A stretch of DNA of 46,161 nt from a plasmid, in the NCBI RefSeq assembly GCF_054482595.1, contig NZ_JBTHVH010000006.1; one strand, given 5' to 3'. The position numbers are program-made. This document shows positions 34,201 through 37,200 of this stretch, piece by piece. Within the stretch, counting starts at the first letter, position 1. Each line of letters begins with the position of its first letter.

Positions 34201-37200
34201 TGGTGTGTCGCCTTCCATGCCCTGCCGGGCATCATGGAGCCAGCGGCGGAGGTTACTCATTCTTTCCCGGTTTGCCCGGCTGGGACTTTTTCCCCTGTTA
34301 CCGCTTAGTATACTCCAGACTCTTAACCCGGCCTCGTTAGTCCAGTGCAATACAATTTCCCCTTTGCTGTTAAATCCCAGCGAAAACCGGACAGCTCCCC
34401 GCCTCTGTTCTGCACTGATAAAATCTAAAAACTCCTGTTTTTTCATAGCACCTCCTGTTTTTCTATCAGTGCTTTTGTTTCTTTCTTTTCCAGGGCTTTT
34501 CTGAGTAATGCCATGTACTCAGGAAAAGCAGAGAATGGCATCAAGGGAAAAACCGGACGCCCACCCTTTTCAACAGTCTGTATTGCTGATAACATGCGTT
34601 CCGACATTTTATATTCCTCGCGAGGGAATTGAGTGTCACGGTATCAGGTTGCCTCCACAACCTGATACCACCCCTAATTGATTAACTCCGCAGTTCTCTT
34701 ATCGCTTCATTTTTGGCTTCCTCCAGTTCTTTAAGGGTATATGCGAAATTCTTCCAGTTAATTACTTCGTTTATAACCTCAGATTTACTTAAACCACACT
34801 CATTAAACCAAAAGTTAATATTTTTCTTGAGGGAATTTTTCGCCGTCAGTTCCTCGGACAACAATTCACTAACAGACGTGATAACATAACCACGACCGCG
34901 ATTTTTATCTTCGAAAGAATGAACGGCAAGGAAGAGAGTTTCTGAATGGACAAAAGCAGAGCAGGTGATTTTTTCTTTCTTAGTGTTTAAAGCCTGGAAA
35001 GTGATAACATACGTGTTCATTTTAGTCTCCCGCCCGTTTGGGCTACTGGATCATGGTAAGGAACTATTCCCGACCTACAAATAAATTATACCATCATATG
35101 ATGGTAATGCAATTTATTTAGTCACTTTATCCTGATTTTTTTCTCTCTTAACGAGCTGGTAATCTGGATGTTCATCAGCCAGGAGCAAAAGTAATTCATA
35201 CGTACCAGCGGCTAAACCACGAGACGTTTTACCGGATGTTTCTTTGGCTTGCCAGGCTGATAACGTAAAACCAAACCGTTCAGCGGCTTCCTGCTGCGTA
35301 AAGCCAGCTTTAATACGTGCTTGTTTCACCTCTTCAGGTGTTGGCTTAAAACTCATGATTTTGTACCTTCACAATAGTATCTGTATAGAATTTCAATAAA
35401 ATTGGATCATCAATTTCATCTTTAACGTTCGAGAATTCTTCGTAATAAAATGATTTTTGGAAAACAATCTTTTTAGTTGTTTTTTTATCCGCTTCTTTAG
35501 AGCGTACCTTCATCAGTTTTTCAAGTTCAATAAACAAACGTGTTGCATCTTCAGACACAACAATCCTGTATGTTACATTACCTTTGTTTTTCCTGTCGCT
35601 CAGGACTTCATTCATTTTTTGCCTCATAGCTGTTTAATAAACCCCGCTACCTTTATGAGCTGATCTACACTCAGGCCACGAATTACCATTTCATATCCGT
35701 CGCCCCGTTCTGATACGTTACCATCTAACCCATTCTCAACTTTAAACCCGGTCAATGTCCCATGCCAGCTTTCAAGATGCACTAAACGAGATAGCATTCC
35801 TTTCAGGATCAGTTTTTTCTCGCGTTTTTGCTGTAACTGTTGTTCATACTCTCGCGCCATATCTACATTATCTAAAGCATCCGACAGGATTTTCTTTTCA
35901 ATATCGGCGGCGATTTCTACAGGGTTACGCTCTGGCGATACTGTGCAAGTATGGTAAGGACTTCTCCAGCTGCGACTATCTACGCTTCCAATGATAACTA
36001 ACCTTCCTTTCTCCATTCGAATATGTATAGAGTAATTTTTAAAATCAGGTGAGGTTAGCTTAATCCTGTACTGGCAATCATCGAGCAGATTTACACGCCA
36101 GCCGTTCCCCAGGATTCGACAAACGATTTCAAACACCGGTTTATACCGTTCAAAGAAATTTTTCTGTTCTTTCATCGATTCAGCCTTTTGAACTCAATAA
36201 AAAAGCCGTAAATCGAATTACGGCAGTTTTAAGACTATTCATCAAAGTGTCCATCATCACTTGCAGCTTCCTGGGCTTCGCATTCCTGCTGATATGCTTC
36301 TTCCTTCGCAAAAAGATGCGCCCATCCTTCTGCGTTTAAGCCACGGTGCAAGACTGAACCATTTTCATTGCATTCTTTGGCTGTAACTTCGATCTCATCC
36401 GGGCAAATGTAGGCTCCGTAACTTTCAAAAATGTTTATCAGCTCCGCTTCCGTTATGGTCTTGTTTTTCATCAACGTGTCTCCGAATCAATCTTTGCCAT
36501 GTTCTAGGGGGCTTTCGCCCCCATTCCGGTTATGCGCTTGCTTCTACACGTGTCCAGCCTGACGCCTTACGTTTACCCGCTGTACCATACATTTCACGAA
36601 TTTCTTCAATGCTGTGTTCTTTACGGTTCCAGCGGCTTTTGTGTTCTTCAGGACGGTAAAACCATTGTTTTTTCTTAGATGCCCACTTACAGCCCATTTC
36701 CTTTAAAATGTCTTTGTGTTCTTTAGTTTCTCCGCTAATCCAGACCCAATTACCAATAACTTCATAGACAATCCCTGTAAGGCCGGAAAGCGTATTCAGA
36801 ACTTTTTCCAGATCTTCACCGTAGTTGTAACGTGCGTTTTCATCAGTGCTTTGAAACTGATTGATTTTATCAATGTTAGCCATGAGAAAATCAAACGCAG
36901 CATTTACTGCTTTCATCAGCTCGGCACCCAATGGATTGCGGTCTGGATGATATTTTAAAGCCGCTTTTTTGTATGCCGCCTTGATGTCCTTTTCAGTCAG
37001 ATCACCGGATAAACCAAAAACGTTTAATGCTTCCTGAATATTCATTTTTCGCTCCCGCCCGTGTGGGCTTCTGGAATCTGGCAGGGAACCATTCCCAACC
37101 AACAAATTCATTATACCATCAAATGATGGTTATGGAATCATTTTTAATGCTTTACATTGTAAAGATTACATAAAGATGTATATTGCTTTACCGCGCATGA

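Follow-up and report, generated by a model that had tools for sequence, protein, structure and literature searches.

Two repeats on an IncX3 plasmid (contig NZ_JBTHVH010000006.1 of assembly GCF_054482595.1; 46,161 nucleotides (nt), the whole stretch analyzed, called the window below) each combine a promoter, a palindromic operator and a structured leader in front of a gene. A small helix-turn-helix (HTH) protein encoded between them is the candidate repressor of both. Several described systems resemble this arrangement in part. The CUP (conserved upstream) repeats and their regulators ArdK/ArdR belong to the leading region of IncN plasmids (pKM101/R46). The likeness is functional, namely, repeated promoter elements precede several leading-region operons, plasmid-encoded repressors control them, and the logic proposed for the present system is the same, a burst of expression followed by shut-off. 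However, CUP repeats are several hundred base pairs (bp) long, in contrast to about 110 nt for the present unit, which consists of promoter, operator and structured leader and is common to several incompatibility (Inc) groups.

A second parallel is KorC, which belongs to the kor regulon of the IncP plasmid RK2 and has OC operators at the klcA, kleA and kleC promoters. It is a small plasmid repressor, of about 85 amino acids (aa), and an identical palindrome overlaps the -10 box of several promoters of establishment genes, which are non-essential. Unlike the KorC system, the present one has a different operator sequence, a conserved leader RNA and at least eight specificity classes.

MqsA (YgiT of E. 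coli) has the HTH domain in common with the protein described here; it represses its own operon and binds a short palindrome, ACCT-N(2-4)-AGGT. In addition, the gene upstream of the HTH gene overlaps it, as mqsR does with mqsA. However, the N-terminal zinc-binding (toxin-binding) domain of MqsA is missing, no RelE/MqsR fold is predicted for the upstream protein, the operator is ATAC-N12-GTAT, and several cassettes, not one toxin-antitoxin promoter, would be controlled.

The acr-aca operons join anti-CRISPR genes to the genes of Aca repressors of the HTH type (Stanley et al., 2019, cited in PMC11541004). These operons have a strong promoter, inverted-repeat operators, one or more small hypervariable genes and the gene of the HTH autorepressor in the last position, a layout similar to the present one. 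However, none of the genes described here is known to have an anti-defense activity, and the cassette is repeated before several operons and carries a conserved leader.

Anatomy of the two cassettes

The preliminary description of this DNA had recognized two promoter regions of about 80% identity, each immediately upstream of a minus-strand start codon and each with an 18-bp palindrome or a one-off variant of it. A repeat search yielded a 98-nt direct-repeat family with two copies, 35016-35113 and 37041-37138, which are 82% identical without gaps and thus agree with this picture; the mean column identity in a minus-strand MAFFT alignment is 83%. Pairwise alignment revealed that the likeness reaches far beyond the palindrome, from about 10 nt upstream of the -35 box to the ATG, and that the coding sequences are unrelated. 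The ATG of the 112-aa gene lies at 35020 on the minus strand, at the end of the first copy, and that of the J-domain gene at 37045, as its homologs are annotated as 516-nt genes from the equivalent position. The start of the longest J-domain open reading frame (ORF), 37111, was set aside, because it lies inside the -10 box and the homologs are annotated from the equivalent of 37045.

The term "promoter regions" covers only one part of what the repeats contain: sigma-70 promoters are present, but more than half of the stretch is a transcribed, structured 5' leader. Each repeat is a self-contained minus-strand expression cassette made up of a sigma-70 promoter, an operator and a structured leader with a Shine-Dalgarno (SD) sequence:

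35012..35123, minus strand: cassette 1, upstream of the 112-aa gene, covariance-model score 91.1 bits
35107-35112, minus strand: -35 box TTGCAT, 1 nt past the HTH stop codon
35089..35106: operator palindrome, 18 bp, perfect, TACCATCATATGATGGTA, exact match, class A of ATAC-N12-GTAT
35085-35090, minus strand: -10 box TATAAT, 16-nt spacer
35055-35075, minus strand: leader hairpin 1
35032-35043, minus strand: leader hairpin 2, GCCC-AAAC-GGGC
35027-35031, minus strand: SD sequence GGGAG
35018-35020, minus strand: ATG of the 112-aa gene
37037..37148, minus strand: cassette 2, upstream of the J-domain gene, covariance-model score 92.9 bits
37132-37137, minus strand: -35 box TTCCAT
37114..37131: operator variant, TACCATCAAATGATGGTT, 2 mismatches to the perfect palindrome
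37110-37115, minus strand: -10 box TATAAT, 16-nt spacer
37080-37100, minus strand: leader hairpin 1
37057-37068, minus strand: leader hairpin 2, GCCC-ACAC-GGGC
37052-37056, minus strand: SD sequence GGGAG
37043-37045, minus strand: ATG of the J-domain gene

The palindrome is indeed present in both copies, exact at 35089-35106, and the variant in copy 2 differs at two positions and not, as described before, at one. With up to 3 mismatches allowed, these are the only 2 sites in the window, compared to 0.01 expected from shuffled sequences. The operator sequence of copy 1 also occurs in copies from IncX1, IncX5, Pantoea and Mixta. In both cassettes the palindrome occupies the spacer and extends into the -10 box at its first bases, which is the position of a classical repressor operator. 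Both have -35-like and -10-like boxes with a spacing of 16 bp, within the range of 16-18 bp that defines a sigma-70 promoter; a strict consensus promoter scan missed them because the -35 boxes match at 3 of 6 positions only. A two-fold symmetric site that overlaps the core promoter is what characterizes the operator of a dimeric HTH repressor, and the perfect palindrome of cassette 1 is such a site.

Two further elements lie upstream of the J-domain cassette. A palindrome, CTTTACATTGTAAAG, is found at 37150-37164, directly upstream of the -35 box. Related repeats of the form TCTTTAyGGTGT-TTTACA-nn-GTAAAGA are present at 41594-41629, 42322-42357 and 42457-42528, where they flank a parA/MipZ gene (about 41646-42308), and similar CTTTACA repeats follow the HTH gene in an IncI2 plasmid (locus L010, about 5290-5360). 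They may be sites of a partition protein or a global regulator that also touches the J-domain promoter. The second element is a GC-rich non-coding block of about 300-400 nt (37170-37560, minus strand), which has homologs in front of cassettes in IncX4, IncI2 and pCROD2-like plasmids; outside IncX backbones only short partial matches were found. Judged by where it lies, the block may serve as a single-strand promoter or a priming signal (Frpo/ssi-like). The search for an Frpo-like fold in 37160-37560 gave a single-strand fold z-score of only -1.1.

The cassette family

A profile derived from the first copies was used to find further cassettes, and a covariance model recovers 84 copies in 37 sources. 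The cassettes are present on IncX1, IncX3, IncX5, pCROD2-like, IncX4 mcr-1, IncI2 and IncK2/Z plasmids, on an IncFII-typed Salmonella plasmid and a 24-kb MOBC plasmid, and on plasmids or contigs of Morganella, Xenorhabdus, Yersinia, Pantoea, Erwinia and Mixta. A plasmid typically contains two to four cassettes, and seven were found in one plasmid with a tandem duplication. In a pattern scan of metagenomes most of the stretches listed were chance matches, and about 35 contigs contain real cassettes.

The promoter is well conserved. Among the 82 distinct copies, the -35 box contains TTG in 80 (most often as TTGATA or TTGCCA), the -10 box is TATTAT or TATAAT in 72, and the spacer has 16 or 17 nt in 79. 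Different plasmids have different genes after the cassette, among them the J-domain gene, the 112-aa gene and a variety of small ORFs. Because the downstream genes differ from plasmid to plasmid, the cassette acts as a portable unit.

A weaker version was observed on a pOXA-48-like IncL plasmid (locus L011), which has two cassette-like promoters (6922-7033 and 11181-11291) with a CATCGAAAGG leader, an SD-adjacent hairpin GCGCC/GGCGC and a degenerate palindrome; the related HTH domain is embedded in a protein of 159 aa. Cassettes and HTH genes that are identical or nearly identical to enterobacterial plasmid copies were also seen in three Gram-positive-labelled assemblies, a contig of Arthrobacter mobilis (L018) and contigs of Lachnospiraceae and Bacillota metagenome-assembled genomes (L022, L030). 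Contamination or mis-binning is the most likely explanation.

The leader RNA

The leader of about 60 nt contains hairpin 1 near its 5' end and hairpin 2, which ends one base before the SD sequence. In the covariance-model alignment, 94% of the cells of hairpin 1 hold a standard pair, and all six pairs have changes on both sides. For the whole leader structure the covariation score is 0.335, compared to 0.216 in shuffled alignments; none of 500 shuffles reached it, and the score was lower in every shifted register. Hairpin 1 includes 54 G-U cells on the sense strand, which would be A-C mismatches on the other strand. Therefore, the conserved structure is that of an RNA and not of the DNA strand that is transferred. 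In addition, 52 of 79 leaders have the better fold on the sense strand.

A direct stem search detected hairpin 2 in 77 of the 82 distinct leaders, 76 times ending one base before the SD sequence. Its stems are GCCC/GGGC, GTCC/GGAC, GCCGC/GCGGC, GCCCA/TGGGC, GCCCC/GGGGC and GCGCC/GGCGC, plus one register-shifted form. Because loop lengths differ, the MAFFT/RNAalifold alignment missed this hairpin and the covariance-model alignment under-counted it. Many leaders also have, 5' of hairpin 2, a run of pyrimidines that is able to pair with the SD sequence. Rfam contains no family for the leader, and the only match of the region was a chance miRNA (E 0.72) located elsewhere, at the hairpin 34640-34672. 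The 5' hairpin might stabilize the mRNA, and the SD-adjacent hairpin might set or gate the initiation of translation, whichever gene comes next.

The HTH protein and its operator classes

Searches of NCBIfam, PHROGs and Pfam recognized one DNA-binding protein in the two transcription units, the 80-aa HTH protein encoded at 35114-35356. Its best match among solved structures is the C-terminal domain of MqsA (PDB 3fmy, E 2e-5, residues 6-65). Its Pfam hits are PF15731/HTH_31 (for PF15731, best member E 1.4e-6, and 9 of 10 family members with E of 0.1 or below), it matches a PHROG family annotated as "transcriptional repressor," and it has a weak sequence match to Aca3 (9vt3, E 4e-4). The match to the NCBIfam model TIGR03830 reaches 19.8 bits, compared to a curated cut-off of 61.8, and covers profile positions 66-100 of 127. 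The label "MqsA-family antitoxin" used in some records was rejected, as the protein has no zinc domain and no cysteine, scores below the cut-off and lacks a RelE-type partner. In every annotated relative the HTH gene closes a cassette-driven operon, and the next cassette often follows directly. Because the HTH gene is the last gene of an operon driven by a cassette, the layout is that of an autorepressor.

The frame of the operator is constant, ATAC-N12-GTAT, and the inner bases sort into at least eight classes:

Class A: ATACCATCAwwTGATGGTAT; IncX1/3/5, Pantoea, Mixta
Class B: ATACCTGCAwwTGCAGGTAT; pCROD2-like, IncFII-typed, MOBC plasmid
Class C: ATACGAC...GTCGTAT; IncX4, Morganella
Class D: ATACATCTAAATAGATGTAT; IncI2, IncK2/Z
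Class E: ATACGyCCAATAAGGCGTAT; Xenorhabdus and a Klebsiella plasmid
Class F: ATAGGTCA...TGACCTAT; pHNSHP45-type IncI2
Class G: ATACGTCCAGATGGACGTAT; Yersinia pJARS36
Class H: ATACTGCC...GGTAGTAT; metagenome contig

All operators of a given locus are of one class. The half-sites are symmetric at 8 or more of 10 positions in 71 of 81 distinct copies, although the sequence differs between plasmid groups. The 28 distinct HTH sequences from 44 related loci map one-to-one to the eight operator classes via variants of helix 3. MqsA contacts DNA with Asn97 and Arg101 (PMC5422877). In the HTH protein of IncX3 these residues align with Ser33 and Ala37, and exactly these positions vary between the classes: Ser, Asn or Arg is found at the equivalent of Asn97, and Ala, Met, Lys or Arg at the equivalent of Arg101. 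Arg at the former position goes together with G at operator position 5 in four of four classes (C, E, F and G), and likewise in an Erwinia locus outside the eight classes (L031). Classes A, B, D and H, whose proteins have Ser or Asn instead, show C, A or T at operator position 5, and G in none of the four. The comparison of classes D and G is particularly simple, since the proteins are very similar, with Ser replaced by Arg at the Asn97 equivalent, and the operators differ by A versus G at position 5. The J-domain protein and the 183-aa protein encoded in the same unit do not track the operator class.

Two comparisons separate the HTH protein from its neighbors. The first is a mosaic between an IncX4-like contig and an IncI2 plasmid. 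The DNA of the J-domain and 183-aa genes is 93-100% identical, and the GC-rich spacer after the HTH gene 88-92%. The values are 61% for the cassette upstream of the J-domain gene, 24-66% for the stretch with the HTH gene and the overlapping gene of a small protein upstream of it (protein C, see below), and 66-70% around the next, downstream cassette. At the protein level the identities are 99% for the J-domain protein, 94% for the 183-aa protein, 69% for the HTH protein and 40% for protein C. Because the J-domain and 183-aa proteins are nearly identical across this mosaic with different cassettes, they are excluded as determinants of specificity. Judged from these alignments, the cassettes in the IncX4/IncI2 modules were replaced together with the C-HTH gene pair. 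The second comparison lies within class B, in which the operator is unchanged, the HTH proteins are 73-82% identical and the C proteins 39-47%. Within this class it is thus the HTH protein that appears to track the operator, and not protein C.

A published regulator very probably belongs to this family. EcaR is an XRE regulator of IncI2 mcr-1 plasmids for which a DNase I footprint on the chromosomal wecE promoter and activation of this promoter have been reported (PMC12612032). In the IncI2 plasmid pFORC82_3 (locus L168, NZ_CP026644.1 29000-42000), the only annotated 252-bp HTH gene is a member of class F. It is present twice, at 1107-1358 and 4153-4404 of the locus, due to a 3-kb tandem repeat. 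Seven cassettes with ATAGGTCAnTTnTGACCTAT lie within 7 kb of it, and it ends an operon that is driven by a cassette. Judged by the size and annotation of its gene, this class-F protein is very probably EcaR. The main text of the EcaR study mentions neither palindromes nor autoregulation (PMC12612032). A search for the class-F operator in the wecD/PwecE region of E. coli K-12 gave a best site with 6 mismatches and no AGGTCA half-sites.

Protein C

Protein C is small, basic and hypervariable, with 25-50% identity between classes, but an N-terminal RKNKG motif is conserved. AlphaFold gave a confident model (predicted local distance difference test score, pLDDT, of 90) that comprises four strands and two helices. 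Fold matches are weak; they are to single-strand nucleic-acid binders of the PUR-repeat/PC4-like type (best E 0.016, template modelling (TM) scores of 0.46-0.54), and RelE/MqsR chains are absent from the 50 PDB matches listed for the model. The predicted fold suggests that a role on single-stranded DNA or RNA fits better than one on a duplex palindrome.

The gene block and its plasmid setting

The 2.65-kb region around the cassettes is 100% identical to many IncX3 plasmids of 46,161 bp that carry blaNDM, and by this comparison the window is a complete IncX3 plasmid of the blaNDM type. The two cassettes belong to a block of eight minus-strand genes, which lies between the relaxosome genes taxA and taxC on one side and the iterons and the replication initiator gene on the other:

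32140-33300, same orientation as the block: taxC
33303-33917, same orientation as the block: taxA
34145-34162: terminator-like hairpin closing unit 2
34189..35020, minus strand: unit 2, three genes
34189-34446, minus strand: 85-aa gene, unit 2
34443-34607, minus strand: 54-aa gene, unit 2
34682-35020, minus strand: 112-aa gene, first gene of unit 2
35114..35356, minus strand: gene of the 80-aa HTH protein, candidate repressor, last gene of the J-domain unit
35346..35627, minus strand: gene of protein C (89-93 aa), overlapping the HTH start
35624..36175, minus strand: 183-aa protein gene
36235..36474, minus strand: 78-79-aa acidic protein gene
36530..37045, minus strand: gene of the 171-aa J-domain (DnaJ N-terminal domain) protein, first gene of unit 1
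38222-38384: 22-bp iterons
38398-39411: replication initiator gene

The J-domain protein has NCBIfam DnaJ matches at residues 7-66, and related records annotate a DnaJ-domain protein. The 183-aa gene is conserved beside the J-domain gene in IncX1/3/4/5 and IncI2, and the 79-aa acidic gene was found only in the IncX3 version of the unit among the loci examined. For the 112-aa, 54-aa, 85-aa, 79-aa, 183-aa and C proteins, NCBIfam, PHROGs and Pfam returned nothing. A terminator-like hairpin followed by TTTTTT (GCCGTAATTCGATTTACGGC; 36205-36224, minus strand) lies between the 79-aa and 183-aa genes, inside the presumed J-domain operon, and would attenuate the expression of the three genes that follow (183-aa, C and HTH). 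A strong hairpin with a 13-bp stem and no T-run (34640-34672) separates the 112-aa gene from the 54-aa gene and may be an mRNA processing or stabilizing element.

All eight genes are directed towards taxA and share the orientation of taxA and taxC. Because gene order and orientation fit the expected arrangement, the block is probably the leading region, i.e., the first DNA to enter the recipient cell. IncX plasmids have been reported with two origins of transfer (oriTs).

Proposed mechanism and alternative explanations

The comparative evidence supports the earlier proposal that one dimeric repressor, possibly the XRE-family protein encoded at 35114-35356, would co-regulate both units. We regard it as likely that the cassettes drive both gene clusters and that a dimer of the HTH protein binds both operators and represses transcription with negative feedback. 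According to this model, both promoters would fire when the repressor-free plasmid DNA becomes double-stranded in a new host. The J-domain unit would then also produce the HTH protein, in IncX3 by read-through past 36205-36224. HTH dimers on the two operators would occlude the -10 box and the spacer and thereby block RNA polymerase, and both units would be shut down by negative feedback.

Several points weigh against this model. Autoregulation in IncX3 needs read-through, because the terminator-like hairpin at 36205-36224 separates the promoter from the HTH gene. The copy at the J-domain gene has a poor -35 box (TTCCAT) and an imperfect palindrome, and the evidence for the status of the block as leading region consists of gene order and orientation. 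EcaR, very probably an IncI2 member of the family, has been reported as an activator of a chromosomal promoter (PMC12612032). Furthermore, the covariation of operator and HTH protein is confounded by linkage, as operator, leader, C and HTH are inherited together; the IncX4/IncI2 mosaic and the class B comparison break this linkage.

The most serious competitor is protein C, which might read the operator, alone or in an obligatory complex with the HTH protein, or serve as specificity determinant, co-repressor or anti-repressor. The overlap of the two genes and their joint exchange in the mosaic would fit, as would the basic character of the protein and the similarity of its model, albeit weak, to PUR/PC4 nucleic-acid binders. 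However, these folds bind single strands and not palindromic duplexes, C diverges strongly within class B under an unchanged operator, and the variable HTH positions are the known base-contact positions of MqsA. Therefore, we consider a role of this kind improbable. An activator function of the HTH protein, bound in the spacer in the manner of MerR, is brought to mind by the report on EcaR and by the weak -35 box of the J-domain copy. Activation of the MerR type relies on an over-long spacer of 19-20 bp, and it is very unlikely here, since the spacers have the optimal length of 16-17 bp, the -10 hexamer is close to its consensus and partly covered by the operator, and the closest structural relatives, MqsA and Aca3, are repressors.

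It is equally doubtful that the palindrome acts as a nucleic-acid hairpin, either as the intrinsic terminator of the J-domain operon or as an Frpo/ssi-type structure in the transferred strand. A terminator scan did flag 35106-35089 with a T-rich tail, 8 nt past the HTH stop codon, and the single-stranded DNA fold of cassette 1 is more stable than that of shuffled sequences (z -3.0 and -3.4). In contrast, no gene precedes copy 2 on that strand, and the folds of this copy (z -1.3 for the plus strand, and -1.7) are unremarkable compared to shuffles. The stem is AT-rich with 3 G-C pairs of 7, the scan flagged neither copy 2 nor the other classes, and operators outside class A have no T-run. In an Frpo-like structure a long hairpin would hold the -35 and -10 boxes in duplex, but in the single-strand folds of both cassettes pairing is limited to the palindrome and small hairpins, and the -35 box and most of the -10 box stay outside the duplex. 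A hairpin role would also leave unexplained the parallel changes of the palindrome and of the recognition helix of the HTH protein. The last alternative is a merely duplicated constitutive promoter and leader, in which the palindrome is unbound or a site for a host factor. Two copies could in principle stem from a duplication. However, the palindrome stays symmetric although its sequence differs from one plasmid group to the next, a site for a host factor would not split into eight plasmid-specific classes matched to a plasmid protein, and the cassette boundaries are sharp, at the ATG; we give this explanation very little credence. Repression of both cassettes by the HTH dimer is the preferred model.

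Implications for plasmid biology

A circuit of this type, an autorepressed plasmid regulon with several promoters, is of an ordinary kind. In the literature searched, i.e., on IncX3/DnaJ, on repressors of the IncX leading region and on IncX4/IncI2 regulators, the cassettes are undescribed. A cassette family with a structured leader, and its spread and diversification across clinical plasmid groups, thus appear to be undescribed there.

A more far-reaching interpretation, which we put forward as a speculation with the balance of probability against it, is that the operator/HTH classes are immunity groups comparable to those of lambdoid phages, that the cassettes are insulated early-gene units, that EcaR is mainly an autorepressor, and that protein C is an anti-defense or single-strand-binding establishment factor. 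If the classes were immunity groups, a resident plasmid would silence the establishment genes of any same-class plasmid that enters the cell, and selection for escape from this cross-repression would account for the swap of just the cassettes and the C-HTH pair in IncX4/IncI2 modules that are otherwise 93-100% identical. The cassette with its leader would then be a natural insulated expression unit that can be placed before any early gene.

IncX3 plasmids (with NDM) and IncX4 and IncI2 plasmids (with mcr-1) are among the main carriers of carbapenem and colistin resistance, and the control of their early genes is not covered in the literature searched. If the repression model is true, one small repressor and a 20-bp operator would switch off the whole block beside the transfer region. 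The Ser/Asn/Arg position in helix 3 would represent a recognition rule, the published regulator EcaR would appear in a different light, and the operator classes would predict which plasmids cross-regulate each other.

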